From the IMG/VR virus record IMGVR_UViG_3300007735_000802: 64,000 nucleotides of DNA. One strand, written 5' to 3'. This stretch comes from a virus. Every line of letters starts with the position of its first letter. Positions within the stretch are counted from its first letter, which is position 1. A program made the translations under genes and the position numbers. Below, one piece after another: positions 43,205 through 53,276 of this stretch. The notes under the pieces were generated by a model that saw nothing but the letters and a program-made list of their open reading frames with translations, had not been told where the DNA came from and made no database searches.

Positions 43205-44098
43205 TTAGTCTTCTGCTAGTTTCTGAAAATAACTCAGAGCATCTGACTCTTCGTCAACATCATCTTCTACGGGTTTCTTTGACTTCAAAGATGGTTTCTT
43301 TTCCGTCAACTCATCAGCAACATCCTCTGCTGTCTTCTGAGAAGATGGAGCAGTTCCACGAACATCTCCACCAAGAACCTCATACATACGAGACTTGAGT
43401 TCTTCGTATGTTTTAAAGTTTGATGCATCTACAAGAGGAAGAAGTGCATGTTGAGATTTCCAAATCTTTTCCAACTTAGCATCGTCATCTGAAAGAACAG
43501 ATTGAGAATCAAACTCGGACTTATCATAATTGGTAAAACCACCAACCTTACGAATCTTGATTCTGAAGTTTGCACCCTTCCAGAAATCAAATGGATTGAT
43601 TGGTTCCTCATCATTGAATTCAGGCTTCATTGCTTCCTGAATCTTCTCAAAGATCTTGGTTCCAAACTTATAAAGAAAAACCTTTCCCTCATTCTGTGGA
43701 TTTGCTGGATCTGAAACCACATAAATGTTTGCAATATAAGTCAACTTACGCTTGCGAATTCTTGCAAGATCCTTATCTGATTCAAGACCAGAATTCCAGA
43801 GTTGATTATTTAATTCGCCAACAGGATCCTTTTGACCAATTGTTGTCAGAGAGTTTTCAATATACCATCCACCTGGTCCTTGAAATGCATGGTTATACAT
43901 CTTTACCCAAGGAACATCCTCTCCGTCTACTGGTGGAAGAAAACGAATAATTGCAAATCCGTTTCCAGACTTATCTTGCTCTGGTCGCCAAAAGCGATCA
44001 TCCTTATAATCCTTTGCCTTGGTCTGATCTTCCATCTTCTTAATAAGATCTTCAATACCAGACTTTGACTTCTTCTTCAAATCTCCAAATGAACCCAT
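43205..44098 (-). CDS. gp32: Single-stranded DNA-binding protein (T4 gp32-like)
   Basis: DDRFW...DKSGNG.AIIRFLP, HAFQGPGGWYIENSLTT, GANFRIKI, NYDKSEF, acidic tail. Confidence 0.98.
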   Translation of the reverse strand: MGSFGDLKKKSKSGIEDLIKKMEDQTKAKDYKDDRFWRPEQDKSGNGFAIIRFLPPVDGEDVPWVKMYNHAFQGPGGWYIENSLTTIGQKDPVGELNNQLWNSGLESDKDLARIRKRKLTYIANIYVVSDPANPQNEGKVFLYKFGTKIFEKIQEAMKPEFNDEEPINPFDFWKGANFRIKIRKVGGFTNYDKSEFDSQSVLSDDDAKLEKIWKSQHALLPLVDASNFKTYEELKSRMYEVLGGDVRGTAPSSQKTAEDVADELTEKKPSLKSKKPVEDDVDEESDALSYFQKLAED

Positions 44099-47418: not shown

Positions 47419-47775
47419 TCATATATTGCTTTCGTGTATTTCTCTATGGCAATTAGCACAGACTAAAATACATTTTGATAATTCTTTTTTAAGTTTGGTT
47501 TCGCTTAACATCCTCATTTTTGACCATTCATATTCTTTAGAAGTTTTATCCAAATGATGAAATTCTAGTGCAGACATTGACTTGTTATATCCACATTTAC
47601 TACAACAACCACCCATTTTGCTGACTACTTCTATTTTTCTAGATTTCCATCTGTCCATACAGTATTGATTGAAACAATCTTTACAATACGAATATGAGTC
47701 TTTTCTTCCCTTTCTAGAATAAAACTGATCTTGAGTTTTTTCTATAGCACATTTAGAGCATTTTTTTGTCGTCAT
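47419..47775 (-). CDS. HNH endonuclease with Zn ribbons
   Basis: CSKC...CKDC, CSKCGY...LEFHH...CANCHREIH; immediately 3' of tRNA-Arg. Confidence 0.85.
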   Translation of the reverse strand: MTTKKCSKCAIEKTQDQFYSRKGRKDSYSYCKDCFNQYCMDRWKSRKIEVVSKMGGCCSKCGYNKSMSALEFHHLDKTSKEYEWSKMRMLSETKLKKELSKCILVCANCHREIHESNI

Positions 47776-47807: not shown

Positions 47808-47879
47808 CAACCCCACCAGGAATCGAACCTGGAATAACAGCTTAGAAGGCTGTGGTTATATCCTTTTAACTATGAGGTC
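47808..47879 (-). tRNA. trnR: tRNA-Arg(UCU)
   Basis: Cloverleaf; anticodon arm ACAGC-CTTCTAA-GCTGT; TTCGATT T-loop; no encoded CCA. Confidence 0.93.
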
Positions 47880-47891
47880 TTCGATGCACCT

Positions 47892-47920
47892 ATTATACCA
47901 CAATAGGTGTCCCGTGTCAA
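47892..47920 (-). promoter_or_regulatory. sigma70 promoter for tRNA-Arg
   Basis: TTGACA-17 nt-TATAAT, with TG extension. Confidence 0.8.
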
Positions 47921-47923
47921 GGG

Positions 47924-48241
47924 TTAAACCGAAAGTTTGAGATTTGAATTTCCAGTGGGATCTACAATCTTTTTACCCGGTACTACAAGATTATTTACAA
48001 TTACAGATGTGTAATGATCTCCTAGTTCCTTTTGTGGATCTACCATGAAAACAATATTTTTCTTTTCGATGATTACGCCACTCTCTGTATTTGCGTATGG
48101 AATCCATCGCGCGAGTAGCAACTTTCCTTCTGGAGACGGAATAAGAACTGCCGCATCCTTAAGAGTTACTGTGTCTTCATTAATTGTTGTATTTGAAATA
48201 ATTTCTTCACCACTTACCAAACGAATAATCTTCACTTCCAT
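47924..48241 (-). CDS. Sm-like domain protein of T4-like phages
   Basis: MEVKIIRLVSGEEII...WIPY pattern; GGAG SD. Confidence 0.7.
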   Translation of the reverse strand: MEVKIIRLVSGEEIISNTTINEDTVTLKDAAVLIPSPEGKLLLARWIPYANTESGVIIEKKNIVFMVDPQKELGDHYTSVIVNNLVVPGKKIVDPTGNSNLKLSV

Positions 48242-48246
48242 TATAT

Positions 48247-48483
48247 TTACTCCTTGTTTTCTGAACATCTAAACATTATACGATCCCAAAATGTACACTT
48301 TGGGGGTTTATCAATAGGCCAACATGTACAACATGTTGATGGCCTAATATTTTCATTTTTTGGATCTATGAATCGATCAATACCTTTTTCAATTTCTTTG
48401 AGAGAAAGAAACATATCAATACATCTACCATCTCTGGTTGTTTGAACATGAATCAATTCTGATCGTTTTACTTCTCTTGGCAT
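48247..48483 (-). CDS. Hypothetical protein
   Basis: 78-aa ORF with GGAG SD. Confidence 0.6.
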   Translation of the reverse strand: MPREVKRSELIHVQTTRDGRCIDMFLSLKEIEKGIDRFIDPKNENIRPSTCCTCWPIDKPPKCTFWDRIMFRCSENKE

Positions 48484-48505
48484 TTTAGATCTCCATTATA
48501 GTCAA

Positions 48506-48835
48506 TTACACATTGATGTCAATATTTATCTTTCCTTTTTTTGCTTTTATCTTGTTTGAAACAAAATCATATATCAATTCCAATGATTTTAATCCTATAA
48601 ATCCCATGACAAATGCAGTTCCATATTTACCATTGTTTTGTATATATTCTGGCATAAAATTCAAAACTATTGGTGTAAGGTAATTTGCACATATTGCGCC
48701 AGCAAATATAGATGTTATTGCTTTTCCCGGTGTTTGATTCTTTGTAGTGAGGGCAAGCAACAATGCTCCAAAAAATCCAGCCATAACGAGTCCAAAATCT
48801 ATCCCGTAATTTGAGTTTTCTGAAGACTGATCCAT
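48506..48835 (-). CDS. Putative holin (3 TM segments, basic C-terminus)
   Basis: AGFFGALL, AGAICANYLTP, AFVMGFIG; late promoter TATAAATA at 48892-48899. Confidence 0.6.
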   Translation of the reverse strand: MDQSSENSNYGIDFGLVMAGFFGALLLALTTKNQTPGKAITSIFAGAICANYLTPIVLNFMPEYIQNNGKYGTAFVMGFIGLKSLELIYDFVSNKIKAKKGKINIDINV

Positions 48836-48901
48836 GCACAATTCCTTATTTAATATTAATATCAAACACATATTAAATAGGGTTGCAACCTTATTTATAA
48901 T

Positions 48902-49195
48902 TCATCTTTTTTGTCTGGTTTTTGTAGTAAAAAAGACGAACATAGAAATGACAAAAATAGTCATAGGTGCTGAAATATTGTGTATATGTGTAGCATTGTG
49001 GTGATAAAACTTGTAATCCAAATCAATCTTATATCTGATAATATATTCACTTTGTTCATATTTTTCCAGACTTGGATGATAATTTATGCCTACATTGGAT
49101 TTATATGATTCTGGCAACATCCATCCATAATTCACATCGTTAATTTTAATATCTTTTTTTTCTTTTATCATCAGAAGAATGTCTTGTTTTGACAT
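48902..49195 (-). CDS. Hypothetical protein with C-terminal TM helix and basic tail
   Basis: ...ISAPMTIFVISMFVFFTTKTRQKR. Confidence 0.55.
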   Translation of the reverse strand: MSKQDILLMIKEKKDIKINDVNYGWMLPESYKSNVGINYHPSLEKYEQSEYIIRYKIDLDYKFYHHNATHIHNISAPMTIFVISMFVFFTTKTRQKR

Positions 49196-49199
49196 GTCT

Positions 49200-49556
49200 T
49201 CAGGAAAACCATGAACTAGAGAAGTCGTGTATTGTGCTTACTTCTCTAGTTTCTCCTTCTTTGTTTTCTTTTGGTATTTCAAACGATTCTACCTTATCGT
49301 TTATTTGTTCAACCCCAGAAAAAATATCAACAATCTTATCAGCAAACTCTTTACCGATCAGGGTTATTGCAATAACCATTACTACGGTAAGTGCAAATAT
49401 TTTCTTTTCTAATTTTTCTATAGAAAGAAATGCCACCTTTTTATCTTCTTCACATTGCTTACATTTAGAATCTTTACATTCTGATAATTGTTTTTCACAT
49501 TCGTTACAGTAATTTTGTTCCTTTGAATTCATTGTAGCTCCTCTAGCTGAAACCAC
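49200..49556 (-). CDS. Single-TM membrane protein with Cys-rich N-terminus
   Basis: CNEC...C...CKQC followed by a TM segment; late promoter TATAAATA at 49586-49593. Confidence 0.6.
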   Translation of the reverse strand: MVSARGATMNSKEQNYCNECEKQLSECKDSKCKQCEEDKKVAFLSIEKLEKKIFALTVVMVIAITLIGKEFADKIVDIFSGVEQINDKVESFEIPKENKEGETREVSTIHDFSSSWFS

Positions 49557-49594
49557 AATAATATACCCGAGTCACTACATGCATATATTTATAT

Positions 49595-49619
49595 AAAAAA
49601 ACCCACCATTTCTGGTGGG
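49595..49619 (-). terminator. Rho-independent terminator after the tmRNA coding piece
   Basis: CCCACCA-GAAA-TGGTGGG followed by a T7 run on the minus strand. Confidence 0.8.
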
Positions 49620-49852
49620 AGTCAATTCAGTCGCGGGATGACCAGTCCCCACTGCTTTAGGCAGCACGACGCATTGGAGCGGCGTTTATAAGTGCCAACT
49701 TTGGCATTTAACGAGGGTTGTTGACTACCTCTCGGATATCTCCCTATTACTTACATCCCCCCGTCGATTCTGTTCGACCCCGTAGGTTTGAATGGAGTCG
49801 GGGGGATTCGCACCCCCGTGCAGTTGGGTAGTTTGTAAAGATCAACGATATC
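49620..49852 (-). ncRNA. ssrA: Circularly permuted (two-piece) tmRNA; tag AAPMRRAA
   Basis: Minus strand: T-arm and CGACTCC-A (ends 49793), 11-nt spacer, then 5' end GGGGTCGAACAGAATCGAC (starts 49781); G3.U70 pair; PK1; ATAAAC then tag ORF at 49683-49657. Confidence 0.9.
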
Positions 49853-49860
49853 ATTTTTAT

Positions 49861-50124
49861 TTATGGTCTGTCAACTAGATAAATGGATTCTTGATCTACA
49901 ATATCAAGACCGTTATGAGATCCTTTAATTTTTGTGATATCCCACAAAACAAGATCTCCGATCTTAATATCTTCAGTTAGATGTGGTCCAATATCAACGA
50001 CCTTTGACCAAACCATTTTATTTGTTACCTTGTCATCGTAAATAATTCCTGCTTCGGTAGTCTTTCTGCCACCGAATGTTCGTTTAAGCAGAACTGTCTT
50101 TCCCACTGGTTTAATATTTTTCAT
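49861..50124 (-). CDS. groES: Co-chaperonin GroES-like protein
   Basis: IKPVGKTVLLK...TTEAGII...VVDIGP...IKIGDLVL. Confidence 0.85.
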   Translation of the reverse strand: MKNIKPVGKTVLLKRTFGGRKTTEAGIIYDDKVTNKMVWSKVVDIGPHLTEDIKIGDLVLWDITKIKGSHNGLDIVDQESIYLVDRP

Positions 50125-50441
50125 TGCGAATCCTTATTAACAAAATTTTGAAGAGCAGTGGACATTCTGCTCAACGATGATTGTGCGAGAAGAATTTCAT
50201 TTGCAACTCGTTGAAGTTCCTTATTTGTTTCTGCAAGAATTATGTTCTTGTCTTTGTGCATATTTGTGTGCATTTTTTCCAAATCATCAATTTCTGGTTT
50301 CATTGGAAAATGTTTCAAGCACTCAGATGCTCTTTTACGAACTTCACTAGGAACTCGCGGAGTCTTTTCTGGATTTAGCAAATCGAAAAGAAATTCACGA
50401 TTCTTACGCATTGATATGAACCATTCATTTGGAAGTGTCAT
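50121..50441 (-). CDS. BPSL0761-like conserved phage protein
   Basis: MTLPNE...REFL.DLL.P.KTPRVP...R.RA...LKHFP. Confidence 0.65.
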   Translation of the reverse strand: MTLPNEWFISMRKNREFLFDLLNPEKTPRVPSEVRKRASECLKHFPMKPEIDDLEKMHTNMHKDKNIILAETNKELQRVANEILLAQSSLSRMSTALQNFVNKDSQ

Positions 50442-50453
50442 AATAATCTCCAA

Positions 50454-50527
50454 TCGGGGTGACTGGATTTGAACCAACGACTTCTTGCTCCCAAAGCAAG
50501 CGCACTACCAAGCTGTGCTACACCCCG
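50454..50527 (-). tRNA. trnP: tRNA-Pro(UGG)
   Basis: CGGGGTG acceptor; CTTGC-TTTGGGA-GCAAG. Confidence 0.95.
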
Positions 50528-50529
50528 TA

Positions 50530-50601
50530 AGCCACCTATGAGATTCGAACTCACGACCCATGCTTTACAAAAGCATAGCTCTACCGCTGAGCTAAAGTGG
50601 C
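50530..50601 (-). tRNA. trnT: tRNA-Thr(UGU)
   Basis: ATGCT-TTTGTAA-AGCAT; canonical D and T arms. Confidence 0.95.
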
Positions 50602-50602
50602 A

Positions 50603-50785
50603 TCATTCATCTTTGCCTCTGCCCCAACCATAAAGAGTACGATATTCTTCTCTGTTGCGAATATGTTCTTTATTTTGAATTTCTAAAAATTCAATTTTAC
50701 TTCTTGCTTCTGAAAGAAGCTGGGATAGATTCAAATCATTTGTATTTATTGCTGCTTGATGCAATCTAGTTTTAATGTCTTCCAT
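50603..50785 (-). CDS. Small hypothetical protein within the tRNA cluster
   Basis: MEDIKTRL... ORF between tRNA-Asn and tRNA-Thr. Confidence 0.55.
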   Translation of the reverse strand: MEDIKTRLHQAAINTNDLNLSQLLSEARSKIEFLEIQNKEHIRNREEYRTLYGWGRGKDE

Positions 50786-50788
50786 AAA

Positions 50789-50861
50789 CTCTCTGAACTG
50801 GGATCGAACCAGTGACATCAAAGTTAACAGCTTTGCGCTCTACCTGCTGAGCTATCAGAGA
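50789..50861 (-). tRNA. trnN: tRNA-Asn(GUU)
   Basis: CAAAG-CTGTTAA-CTTTG; TCTCTGA/TCAGAGA-G acceptor. Confidence 0.95.
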
Positions 50862-50866
50862 ATAAA

Positions 50867-50955
50867 AGCGTAGCGAAGGACTTGAACCTTTTTCTCACTT
50901 TGCTTTACAGCAAATCTAGTGTGCCTCTGAGTGCGCTACTCAACTGATACTACGC
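50867..50955 (-). ncRNA. Non-canonical tRNA-like RNA
   Basis: 7-bp acceptor GCGTAGT/GCTACGC and AAGG-TTCAAGT-CCTT T-arm, but no standard D or anticodon arm; packed between tRNA-Glu and tRNA-Asn. Confidence 0.65.
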
Positions 50956-50957
50956 AA

Positions 50958-51031
50958 TACCCTAACGGGGACTCGAACCCCGACTCACTGCCTTGAAAGG
51001 GCAGGGATTTAGCCAGTTAATCTATTAGGGC
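50958..51031 (-). tRNA. trnE: tRNA-Glu(UUC)
   Basis: CTGCC-CTTTCAA-GGCAG. Confidence 0.95.
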
Positions 51032-51036
51032 GTTAT

Positions 51037-51180
51037 TCAACCAATGATGCTAAGAATGTAAAACCCAACAAAACCCAACACCACACATTGCAACAATAAA
51101 CTAACAACCAAAAGACCAATCATGGTATTTAGTGAATAGTTTATATCTTCAAACAACTTATCCTTTTCATCATCTGTCAT
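51037..51180 (-). CDS. Small single-TM membrane protein
   Basis: MTDDEKDK... followed by a long hydrophobic helix. Confidence 0.55.
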   Translation of the reverse strand: MTDDEKDKLFEDINYSLNTMIGLLVVSLLLQCVVLGFVGFYILSIIG

Positions 51181-51182
51181 AG

Positions 51183-51254
51183 TACGCCGTACAGGTGCTG
51201 CCCCTGTGCTTAGACGATTATAAGTCGTCCTGAGATGCTGACCTCCCACGGCGC
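51183..51254 (-). tRNA. trnI: tRNA-Ile(UAU) with non-canonical T-loop GGCAGCA
   Basis: GCGCCGT/ACGGCGT-A acceptor; GACGA-CTTATAA-TCGTC; ACAGG-GGCAGCA-CCTGT. Confidence 0.85.
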
Positions 51255-51263
51255 GTTGGTATT

Positions 51264-51292
51264 ATTATACCATGTTAGTTATTGTATGTCAA
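51264..51292 (-). promoter_or_regulatory. sigma70 promoter for the tRNA cluster
   Basis: TTGACA-17 nt-TATAAT, with TG extension. Confidence 0.8.
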
Positions 51293-51587
51293 GCTCTTCA
51301 TCAAGTTTTGTCAAAGTTTGCAGTGCTTCGATTTGATCCATTTTTGGAACAACAATCTTTGACTTTTTGTTGTTTACATGACCATTTTCATTCTTGATTA
51401 AATAATTACTCTTTTGACGATCATCATCGTGTCCAAGACGATAATTGATTTCTTGAATGCCGATAGCATTTAGAATAATCGCCTTGTCATCATGATCTGC
51501 GAGAAGTCCTAGAATTTGAATAGAAGCAATGCGCGCTTCTTCCTCACCCATTTCGAGTGGGATATCAATGTGAAGTCGATACGGCAT
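51279..51587 (-). CDS. Hypothetical protein
   Basis: MPYRLHIDIP... ORF. Confidence 0.65.
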   Translation of the reverse strand: MPYRLHIDIPLEMGEEEARIASIQILGLLADHDDKAIILNAIGIQEINYRLGHDDDRQKSNYLIKNENGHVNNKKSKIVVPKMDQIEALQTLTKLDEELDIQ

Positions 51588-51589
51588 AA

Positions 51590-51745
51590 TCAATCCTGTA
51601 AAAATTGCACAACATCACTCTTTGCAACTTCTAAAAGTTGACCAGAGTCTGTTTTAATCTTAATCATTTCATTTCCAAAAAGGTCTGTGAAAGTCTCAAC
51701 AATCACGCATGTTTCTTTTGTTTCTTTAAGAATATACTTGCTCAT
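51590..51745 (-). CDS. Small hypothetical protein (51 aa, not in the ORF track)
   Basis: MSKYILKETKETCVIVETF...; GGAG SD; fills the gap exactly. Confidence 0.55.
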   Translation of the reverse strand: MSKYILKETKETCVIVETFTDLFGNEMIKIKTDSGQLLEVAKSDVVQFLQD

Positions 51746-51748
51746 AAT

Positions 51749-52117
51749 TTACTCCATTCTCTTAATACCTTCATTATCGGTATAGTATATATCGTCAAAC
51801 ACTTCAAGACACCACGGAGTACACAACTCACATGGTCTTGACATACGCAATTCACGAAAACGATTATATCGTACATTCACAAGCGTGAGTTTTAGTCCAC
51901 GATACTTGTATGGAAGTTTACGATATGCATCAAGTTCTGAATGCATTTCTTCGTAAGGATAACCAATTTCTTTTGCTTTTGGATGAGTCTTAAAACAATT
52001 TCTTCCAATTGAAAGAAGTCTCTTCTTGTGAAAGATTAAAGATATATGCTTCTTTTGCCTTGGAATCTCCAAGCACAAAGGATAAGCAAAATTTAAAAGA
52101 TTATCAAAGTCTGTCAT
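51749..52117 (-). CDS. Zn-dependent cytidine/dCMP deaminase-fold protein
   Basis: HSE...SRPCELC motif. Confidence 0.8.
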   Translation of the reverse strand: MTDFDNLLNFAYPLCLEIPRQKKHISLIFHKKRLLSIGRNCFKTHPKAKEIGYPYEEMHSELDAYRKLPYKYRGLKLTLVNVRYNRFRELRMSRPCELCTPWCLEVFDDIYYTDNEGIKRME

Positions 52118-52172
52118 AAAAAACAAAGATGTGGCATTTCTACCACATCTTCGCAAGTATTGAATTGTATGA

Positions 52173-52451
52173 TCAGGCGTTGATCATGAAACGAGAACCG
52201 TCCTTGCGGAACCCATAGGTACGACGACCCGGATGAGTGTCACGCATGAAGTAACGGGTAGTGTTGCCGTTCTCCACAGTCTCAATCTCCCAGTTACCGT
52301 ACTGCTCGACCTGCTCACGAATGTCGCTCATGGTCGCACGGAGATTCTGAACGCCGTACTTGTTGAGTGCTTCACGCGCATCGATACCCCAACCACGGGC
52401 GAGATGATTAATGACCTGACGCTTCTTGCTGAGAGTGTTGCTGTTTGCCAT
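52173..52451 (-). CDS. Small winged-HTH-like DNA-binding protein with GC-rich codon usage
   Basis: QVINHL...EA..YGVQNLRATMSDIR; own sigma70 promoter (TTGACT-16 nt-TATAAT, 52533-52560). Confidence 0.65.
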   Translation of the reverse strand: MANSNTLSKKRQVINHLARGWGIDAREALNKYGVQNLRATMSDIREQVEQYGNWEIETVENGNTTRYFMRDTHPGRRTYGFRKDGSRFMINA

Positions 52452-52636
52452 AACGATATAATCCTTTACCTTTGACTCTTAGAAACCATCCGAACTCAGG
52501 TGAGTCATGCCGTCGTTCGGTTAACTGCGTATATTATAACAGATCCTGATGGGAAGTCAAGCCCCTTGACTGCTTTCCTAAAAGTTTTTTAAAGTTCAAA
52601 GTTTAAAGTTTTTAAAAATAAAAGTGAGCTAATAGC

Positions 52637-52933
52637 TCACTCTTTAGGCTGCTTGCGGTAGTTTAGCTTCCACAATGCTTTTGCAATTGTCGTTCCCGTT
52701 TCCAGAACTGCTTCTTCAGAAAGTTCCGGTCTTACTGCATGAAGAACTTCGTGAATGATTGTATCCATCAAGTCTATTGGTTTTAGACTTCGCTTTACCC
52801 ATATTTCAGGTTTTGCATATTTTGGATCATCACATTCACCACAAGTATCATGAGATAGTTCTGTAGATTTTACAATCTTAATCTTCCAATTTTTCTTGTT
52901 GATTCGAATTGTAATTTCTTCCTCTGGAACCAT
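52637..52933 (-). CDS. Minimal zincin metallopeptidase-like protein
   Basis: GEC...IWV...DTIIHEVLHA...EE. Confidence 0.75.
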   Translation of the reverse strand: MVPEEEITIRINKKNWKIKIVKSTELSHDTCGECDDPKYAKPEIWVKRSLKPIDLMDTIIHEVLHAVRPELSEEAVLETGTTIAKALWKLNYRKQPKE

Positions 52934-53035
52934 CGGATTCCTCCGTCATATTTAGATCATTCTTTTCACTTTCTGCTAATCGTTTTAAAGTTTGATCATA
53001 TCTGTCAAAAATCTTTTTTATAATTTCTGACAGAA

Positions 53036-53203
53036 TCAATCAGCACCACTTTTGGTTGGTTTTGTGTCATCCCAATGTTTAATGGAATTTTTCTTTTTCT
53101 TCTTCTTACCAAAGATACGATCCCAGTTGTCTGACCACTTTTTGTAGTCAACAGATCTGGGTCTATCTCCTTTTCCCGCAGAATGTTGTCTGTTATCACT
53201 CAT
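53036..53203 (-). CDS. Small basic conserved phage protein (not in the ORF track)
   Basis: AGKGDRPRSVDYKKWSDNWDRIF motif of a common small phage family. Confidence 0.65.
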   Translation of the reverse strand: MSDNRQHSAGKGDRPRSVDYKKWSDNWDRIFGKKKKKKNSIKHWDDTKPTKSGAD

Positions 53204-53205
53204 AG

Positions 53206-53276
53206 AGCGGAATGCGGGAATCGAACCCGCCTCACTAGATTGGAAATCTAGCGCATTACCGATATGCTAATCCCGC
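53206..53276 (-). tRNA. trnG: tRNA-Gly(UCC)
   Basis: GCGGGAT acceptor, U73; CTAGA-TTTCCAA-TCTAG. Confidence 0.95.

Follow-up and report, generated by a model that had tools for sequence, protein, structure and literature searches.

The DNA analysed here (the window) is a 64,000-nt stretch of an IMG/VR virus record, and on its minus strand lies a locus in which the acceptor end of a tmRNA precedes the coding part. This arrangement raises two questions: whether the virus carries a genuine two-piece tmRNA that could serve in ribosome rescue, and to which of the known permuted lineages, if any, such a gene belongs.

Identification of a permuted tmRNA gene

The locus is a phage-encoded, circularly permuted (two-piece) tmRNA gene. 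ARAGORN, run on the window, calls a permuted tmRNA at 49566-49886 on the minus strand with the tag AAPMRRAA*, and the covariance model RF04321 (tmRNA_permuted), searched over the whole window, scores 64.2 bits against a gathering cut-off of 47 (E 4e-10), with the full model (1-213) aligned over 49657-49852. An earlier note, made from the letters of this DNA, had named a permuted tmRNA with the same tag and proposed both of these searches, and each of them bears the identification out. All the features it described lie on the minus strand where it had placed them; only its end of the RNA, at 49620, has to be moved, as the terminator and its U-run reach to about 49595. The gene order is permuted, with the 3' half stopping at 49793 and the 5' half beginning at 49781, and it agrees with the RF04321 score, the acceptor stem, the T-arm, P2, and PK1 with the tag frame and the stop hairpin in indicating a permuted tmRNA. 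The features are collected in Table 1.

Table 1. Parts of the tmRNA gene and neighbouring features, in window coordinates
Feature	Coordinates	Strand	Basis or remark
Acceptor piece, ~60 nt, CCA not encoded	49793..49852	-	RF04321 alignment, covariation, acceptor/T-arm haplotypes
P2c 5' strand	49852-49847	-	acceptor piece
P2b 5' strand	49839-49834	-	acceptor piece
P2a 5' strand	49828-49826, 49823-49821	-	acceptor piece
T-arm GGGGG/UGCGAAU/CCCCC, 5 bp + 7-nt loop	49817-49801	-	sequence, haplotypes
Acceptor 3' strand CGACUCC	49800-49794	-	sequence
Discriminator A73	49793	-	sequence
Spacer, 11 nt	49782..49792	-	sequence
Coding piece	49595..49781	-	sequence, RF04321 alignment, covariation
Acceptor 5' strand GGGGUCG; 7 pairs incl. 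G3.U70	49781-49775	-	sequence
D-loop analogue AACAGAAUCGAC	within coding piece 49595..49781	-	sequence
P2a 3' strand	49763-49761, 49759-49757	-	coding piece
P2b 3' strand	49755-49750	-	coding piece
P2c 3' strand	49740-49735	-	coding piece
PK1	49694..49734; stem 1 49734-49728/49717-49712, stem 2 49725-49720/49699-49694	-	covariation
Tag frame GCC GCU CCA AUG CGU CGU GCU GCC UAA = AAPMRRAA*	49683-49657	-	ARAGORN, conservation
Hairpin P5 GCUGC/GCAGU, stop codon in loop	49651..49665	-	alignment; invariant
3' pseudoknot	49620..49650; stem 1 49650-49647/49638-49635, stem 2 49643-49639/49624-49620	-	covariation
Intrinsic terminator or 3'-terminal hairpin CCCACCA-GAAA-UGGUGGG, then U7	49595..49619 (hairpin 49619-49602)	-	sequence
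T4-type late-promoter-like motif CATAAATA	49858..49865	-	sequence, relatives
gp31/GroES-like (co-chaperonin-like) ORF	49861-50124		directly upstream of tmRNA
HNH endonuclease	47419-47775
gp32 SSB	43205-44098		PHROG 224, E 8e-114; 56-58% identity to cyanomyovirus gp32

The RNA has no anticodon arm, and its D-loop analogue ends in UCGAC. Its T-loop, UGCGAAU, carries G where tRNAs carry U55; in some relatives the loop reads UUCGAAU. Partner strands of P2 include GAUAUC/GAUAUC and UUUACA/UGUAAG, and PK1 is built from GUCAAC/GUUGGC and from CGAG-GG/CCCUCG, the second of which is absent from the earlier note. The terminator proposed there was located as a hairpin followed by U7, and each relative has a hairpin and U-run of its own at this position.

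Covariation among related phage sequences

Folding of the single sequence by minimum free energy gave a non-tmRNA fold (z = -1.7), a method poorly suited to, and uninformative for, a pseudoknotted two-piece RNA, and covariation was therefore used. Motif scans of IMG/VR recovered the T-arm/acceptor 25-mer in 16 contigs and the 5' 18-mer in 19, whereas the tag/P5 module, which is independent of the tRNA-like domain, is found in 68. We mapped the structure (P2a-c, T-arm, acceptor, PK1 stems, P5, 3' pseudoknot stems and terminator) on an alignment of 16 sequences, in which 88.3% of the cells are paired, versus 41-48% when the partners are slid, and 13 pairs show compensatory changes on both sides. 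At 0.188, the covariation score exceeds both that of the slid controls (0.03-0.08) and that of shuffles (0.096), and none of 500 shuffles reaches it. Each helix that had been proposed from the single sequence is present, with homologs on at least 68 IMG/VR viral contigs in support.

The signal is unevenly spread over the helices. P2c is paired throughout (100%), with one double change from U-A to C-G, and P2a is 96% paired with three double changes, its two segments alternating among CCC/GGG, ACC/GGU and UCC/GGA and among CUG/CGG, AUG/CAU and UUG/CAA. P2b is 76% paired and shows no double change, so that it is without covariation support. Stem 1 of PK1 is 93% paired with three compensatory pairs; stem 2 is 74% paired, a shortfall due to alignment indels in one subgroup, whose own stem 2 (GCAAC/GUUGC) pairs by eye. 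In the 3' pseudoknot, stem 2 is 97% paired and again has three compensatory pairs (GGUCA/UGACC, GGUUC/GAACC, GGCCA/UGGCC), and the closing pair of the T-stem changes from G-C to A-U. The P5 hairpin is invariant in all sequences; it is structurally plausible and carries no covariation signal.

The acceptor stem occurs in six haplotypes, with 5' strands GGGGUCG, GGGGCUG, GGGGAUG, GGGACCG, GGGGGUG and GGGUCCG, each with a perfectly complementary 3' strand, and all six keep G3.U70 and A73. The first search motif fixed the acceptor stem, and the haplotypes were re-examined in members found via other motifs; GGGUCCG was found without imposing the G.U pair. The earlier note had named homologs that fail to conserve the acceptor pairing and the tag frame as evidence against a tmRNA; all six haplotypes are paired, and the frame has no indels. 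CCA is not encoded in any of the 49 resolved members.

The same mRNA-like module is joined to clearly different tRNA-like domains in L036, L051 and the L042 group: L036 and L051 have GGGGCUGAA...UUCGA with canonical T-loops, and the L042 group has GGGUCCG. Two truncated alleles (L012:1-340 and L015:2570-2900) keep the acceptor piece and a tRNA-shaped insert and lack PK1 and the tag frame, the insert being followed only by a degenerate GGUCGAGUAAAUCGAC and a terminator. They resemble the "permuted, no CDS" forms and the DS6A-type tmRNA-like RNAs. Since the coding part is lost in both, tagging would be dispensable in some genomes.

The tag peptide

Among the 49 resolved members the tag reads AAPMRMAA in 33, AAPMRRAA in 11, AANMRMAA in three, and GAPMRMAA and GAQMRLAA in one each. 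The 27-nt (nine-codon) frame has no indel in any member of the two sets compared (22 and 49), and codon changes are mostly synonymous (GCA/GCU, CCA/CCU, CGG/CGU/CGC, GCU/GCC), with UGA or UAA as the stop. This pattern argues for translation of the frame. The resume codon GCC lies 10 nt 3' of PK1. An upstream in-frame GCA was considered in its place and is ruled out by a 1-nt indel just upstream of the frame in four relatives (L002, L003, L008, L026), and for this reason GCC is taken as the first codon of the tag.

The C-terminal Ala-Ala never varies. It is part of an RAA or MAA ending, LAA being optimal for E. coli ClpX. Its composition is atypical, basic or Met-rich, with neither an ANDENY-like nor an SspB-like part; in pf16, a T4-like phage with SspB, no tmRNA was found. 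The earlier note had called the tag very short, a description that we do not retain: eight codons are unremarkable, 10 aa being the commonest tag length and 2-aa tags existing in a tmRNA database of 97,179 sequences (PMC11915505). The family's tag strings were not found in the searched literature or in the supplements of PMC9004378 and PMC11915505.

Genome context and expression

The genome is that of an uncultured T4-like myovirus, with a GC content of ~34%. Six tRNA genes (Arg, Pro, Thr, Asn, Glu, Gly) form a cluster around the tmRNA, at 47808-53276. Neither the locus nor the surrounding 20 kb has a match among 50,697 cultured phage records (blastn, megablast), and at E up to 10 these records yield only matches of 27-30 nt, mostly in the T-arm. 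The nearest record is a 34-kb IMG/VR fragment with the same tmRNA (L011). The two are identical through the tmRNA to the 3' pseudoknot and diverge beyond it (49595-49625), and they differ in their terminator hairpins and downstream genes; the 3' end of the tmRNA is, by this comparison, a mosaic junction.

Upstream of the acceptor piece, at the position of the late-promoter-like motif of the window, relatives carry (T/C)ATAAATA 5-7 nt before the GAYAUY start. By the spacing rule of T4 late promoters, the predicted +1 falls at about G49852, the first base of P2c, and would imply late timing. Against 7.2 expected, the window contains 13 exact copies of the late-promoter octamer TATAAATA, 12 of them on the minus strand; one copy, at 49586-49593, follows the tmRNA terminator immediately. 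At 49845-49874 on the minus strand the late-type motif is overlapped by a sigma70-like promoter, TTGACA-18 nt-TATCGT, which has a TG extension and 10 of 12 matches. Transcription from it would begin within the strand of P2c that covaries, and for this reason we rejected it as the principal start; it probably does not initiate the tmRNA, although early expression may occur.

As stated in the earlier note, smpB was not found in the window: tblastn with E. coli SmpB, a search of limited sensitivity, gave a best E of 3.9, and PF01668 is absent. The same holds for the 323 kb of related contigs (tblastn; Pfam PF01668). In the absence of smpB from these sequences, function would therefore depend on host SmpB. 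The window has no riboswitch match in Rfam.

Comparison with known two-piece tmRNAs

Two-piece tmRNAs in phages are, as such, already published. A survey of 18,146 phage genomes found 133 unique tmRNAs, of which 53 are permuted and 50 of these 53 marine or aquatic; the permuted set includes HTVC008M, Melnitz, Mosig, Caulobacter phages, S-CAM1, S-CAM3 and S-CBWM1 (Buchholz et al. 2022, PMC9004378). What is new here is the AAPMR(R/M)AA family without an assignable lineage, which adds to the known cases a sizeable group from uncultivated phages (at least 68 IMG/VR contigs) with a conserved eight-residue tag and does not overturn current understanding. RF04321 recognizes the cultured examples as well (S-CAM1 99.1, S-CAM3 92.5 and HTVC008M 90.6 bits).

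The cyanophages S-CAM1 (NC_020837) and S-CAM3 (KU686197) likewise have a permuted gene in a T4-like phage beside tRNA genes, with the order found in the window: P2, tag, stop hairpin, one 3' pseudoknot, terminal hairpin. Their spacer is 5 nt, versus 11 nt in the window, and the ARAGORN call spans 315 nt, versus 321 nt; in S-CAM3, as in the window, CCA is not encoded. Neither a compact gene nor a short spacer is therefore new, and in the light of these phages and the 53 permuted genes of the survey the view of the gene as a remarkable invention is not supported. In other respects S-CAM1 and S-CAM3 are unlike the window: their tag has 21 codons (ANTSDSAANNIVAFSRSTVAA) rather than eight, they have a canonical T-loop (UUCGAUU) and a 5' leader hairpin, and outside the tRNA-like domain we observed no significant similarity.

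HTVC008M, Melnitz and Mosig carry alpha-type two-piece tmRNAs in marine T4-like myoviruses, for which a role in maintaining the hijacked translation machinery has been proposed (PMC9004378). The T-loop of HTVC008M (UGCAAUA) shares with the window a G at the second position; its tag (ANFNEYALAA) and its spacer, a hairpin of ~50 nt, differ. A glutamine riboswitch and an early promoter distinguish Melnitz from the window, which has the late-type motif. The bacterial permuted tmRNAs (Alphaproteobacteria, some Betaproteobacteria and some Cyanobacteria; RF01849, RF01850 and RF01851, merged in RF04321) share with the window the acceptor-first order, G3.U70, a P2 that joins the pieces, and fewer pseudoknots, and are processed by tRNA-maturation enzymes (PMC11915505). 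The gene studied here, in contrast, fails the lineage models, is virus-encoded without a cognate smpB, and has a tag unlike ANDxxx...AA. One-piece phage tmRNAs (L007, L013 and L017; cluster C mycobacteriophages) also lie in a tRNA cluster; unlike the window, the L007 type has the standard gene order, four pseudoknots and the tag ANTNYRLAA.

For the features that define each lineage we relied on the Rfam models and on PMC11915505, and on all three models the window stays below the cut-off. It scores 39.9 bits on the cyanobacterial model (RF01851; cut-off 70; relatives 15-42), 34.8 on the betaproteobacterial (RF01850; cut-off 84; relatives 15-39, with L036 at 37.8) and 29.1 on the alphaproteobacterial (RF01849; cut-off 50; relatives 27-33), this last through a local match confined to the tRNA-like domain. 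Among the positive controls, S-CAM1 and S-CAM3 reach 128-132 bits on the cyanobacterial model, and HTVC008M reaches 83.8 on the alphaproteobacterial one. The AAPMR(R/M)AA tmRNAs are apparently, to judge from these scores and the searches below, an orphan family restricted to phages. Unlike the cultured examples, it has no host-lineage assignment, and hence no easy host prediction.

The T-arm/acceptor motif, scanned against one genome each of 185,579 bacterial species, has two matches, neither in a permuted tmRNA, and both were discarded as host clues. One, in a Bacilli MAG, lies in a one-piece tmRNA that is unrelated, and the other in a tRNA-Ala of a phage-like tRNA cluster in a Verrucomicrobiota MAG. 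The latter contig (L022, JAXGQW010000016.1; 76 kb; cluster of Phe, Asn, Arg-UCU, Pro-UGG and Ala), whose tRNA-Ala has the T-arm/acceptor motif of the phage tmRNA, may be a mis-binned phage contig.

The ends of the window's tRNA-like domain recur in a one-piece tmRNA (L007, L013, L017) and in the permuted L027. The one-piece tmRNA at L007:1380-1712 (minus strand; identical in L013 and L017) scores 99.8 bits on RF00023 and matches the two-piece tmRNA of the window exactly over its first 18 nt and its last 25 nt. Its tag was read by eye, as ARAGORN misplaces the gene and gives a spurious tag. The permuted tmRNA at L027:6283-6602 is AT-rich and shares the 5' 18-mer; its CCA is encoded, its tag (ANDNSFSQLAIAA) is of alphaproteobacterial style, and it scores 96.6 bits on RF04321, yet on the alpha model it stays at 43.3 bits, below the cut-off of 50. 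Local alignment of the inner sequence gave nothing significant against L007 (z = 0.8) or against the other comparators L027, S-CAM1 and HTVC008M (z up to 2.1); a homology with L007 seen by eye in PK1 and at the tag end was rejected, the alignment similarity being at chance level. The shared domain ends are compatible with module exchange or with selection by a shared host.

Function and origin

We consider it likely that the locus encodes a functional two-piece tmRNA, situated inside the tRNA cluster of an uncultured T4-like myovirus, that rescues stalled ribosomes. From the gene form, the helices, the identity elements and the tag frame we infer its processing, charging, use of SmpB, proteolysis and benefit to the phage as follows. 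A single precursor would be transcribed, probably from the late-type promoter CATAAATA, from about G49852 to the terminator at about 49595. Host RNase P would cleave 5' of G49781, the 11-nt trailer would be trimmed to A49793, and the host CCA-adding enzyme would add CCA, giving a 60-nt acceptor piece and a ~185-nt coding piece held together by the acceptor stem and P2a-c. Host AlaRS would charge the RNA with alanine by way of G3.U70 and A73, and host SmpB and EF-Tu would deliver it to stalled ribosomes. Translation would resume at GCC and append (A)AAPMRRAA, whose C-terminal Ala-Ala would mark the product for a host protease such as ClpXP. The phage would probably benefit through the recycling of ribosomes stalled on truncated mRNAs of a T4-type infection. 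Several observations weigh against this reading: smpB is absent from the window and the related contigs, the T-loop has a G in place of U55, the tag has an RAA or MAA ending and no SspB-like part, P2b and P5 show no compensatory changes, and L012 and L015 have lost the coding part.

One alternative concerns the origin of this tmRNA only, and not its function: that it represents a fourth permuted lineage, independent of the alphaproteobacterial, betaproteobacterial and cyanobacterial ones and perhaps arisen within phages from a one-piece tmRNA like that of L007, L013 and L017. The failure of all three lineage models for the window and five relatives, where cultured phage tmRNAs easily pass the models of their hosts, points in this direction, as do the one-piece phage tmRNA with identical ends and the lack of a permuted tmRNA among the bacterial matches to the T-arm/acceptor motif. 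However, similarity to the one-piece form and the other comparators beyond the shared ends of the tRNA-like domain stays at the low z-scores given above, and the layout (no long 5' leader, PK1, tag, P5, one pseudoknot, terminal hairpin) is that of the cyanophage and cyanobacterial type. The mRNA-like module, moreover, sits on several tRNA-like domains, so that identical ends may reflect module exchange or shared-host selection instead of ancestry, and the models may fail simply because the sequences diverge fast in phages or because the host lineage has not been sampled. We regard a fourth lineage as unlikely. The earlier note had suggested a possibly independent permutation: no lineage model fits, yet there is no significant similarity to the one-piece candidate ancestor, and the data neither demonstrate nor exclude such an event. 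The family bears on the question of how often the permuted form arose or was remodelled in viruses.

Two further alternatives bear on function. In the main one, the RNA would act chiefly as a decoy or modulator that competes with host tmRNA for SmpB, AlaRS or ribosomes, or that replaces a host tmRNA destroyed or shut off during infection, and its short tag might stabilise or re-route proteins rather than target them for proteolysis. A CDS-less tmRNA-like RNA of mycobacteriophage DS6A is cited in PMC11915505 as inhibiting endogenous tmRNA in E. coli, two of the relatives retain the acceptor piece without PK1 and tag, and the tag itself is atypical. Against this, strong purifying selection in more than 49 genomes acts on the tag frame, on where its stop lies, on PK1 and on the interval to the resume codon, and the C-terminal Ala-Ala does not vary; a conserved frame is hard to explain unless it is translated, and this counts against a decoy for the allele of the window. 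We find the decoy role improbable, somewhat more so than a fourth lineage. A non-functional relic, that is, a captured fragment of host ssrA or the remnant of an attachment site, is more improbable by far. Although tmRNA genes are common integration sites and their fragments occur in prophages (PMC9004378), the gene here is complete, every testable helix is maintained by compensatory changes, and 68 contigs of lytic-type T4-like phages have kept the gene, which has a promoter-like motif and a terminator of its own; the scan of bacterial species with the T-arm/acceptor motif also found no close counterpart. Rescue of stalled ribosomes by a two-piece tmRNA thus remains the reading that we prefer.

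A variable spacer with tRNA-shaped elements

Across relatives the slot between the two pieces measures 5-205 nt and can hold a tRNA-shaped element or even a real tRNA-Pro, and it thereby offers a natural series for the processing of two-piece precursors. A conserved element of ~100-135 nt occupies it in many relatives, for example L005:3978-4106, and also in L004, L006, L008-L010, L012, L015, L016, L024-L026, L028 and L037-L041. The element folds into a tRNA-shaped cloverleaf in which a closing stem of 7 bp is combined with a D-like arm, an arm of 5 bp, a long arm of the variable type, and a T-arm-like hairpin that abuts the 3' strand; eight of its pairs are kept via double changes. It receives no tRNA call from ARAGORN and no Rfam match at E up to 10. 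The element may serve as a processing handle for RNase P and RNase Z, and the short-spacer alleles look like precise deletions of it. A broader picture, in which the AAPMR(R/M)AA family is a phage-borne fourth two-piece lineage with exchanged domains and modules and the spacer is a docking slot for tRNA-shaped elements and tRNAs, is conceivable and in our judgement unlikely.

The longest spacer, of 205 nt, is that of L041:466-916 (minus strand), where the tRNA-shaped element and a genuine tRNA-Pro(UGG) stand between the acceptor and coding pieces. Further tRNA-like elements lie upstream of the acceptor piece in L036:1540-1660 (minus strand) and in the L042, L048, L058 and L070 groups, each bearing a T-arm-like GGGUGCAxGyCCC hairpin. 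In L036, a copy related to the spacer insert is located ~650 nt upstream of the tmRNA, with an ORF between the two.
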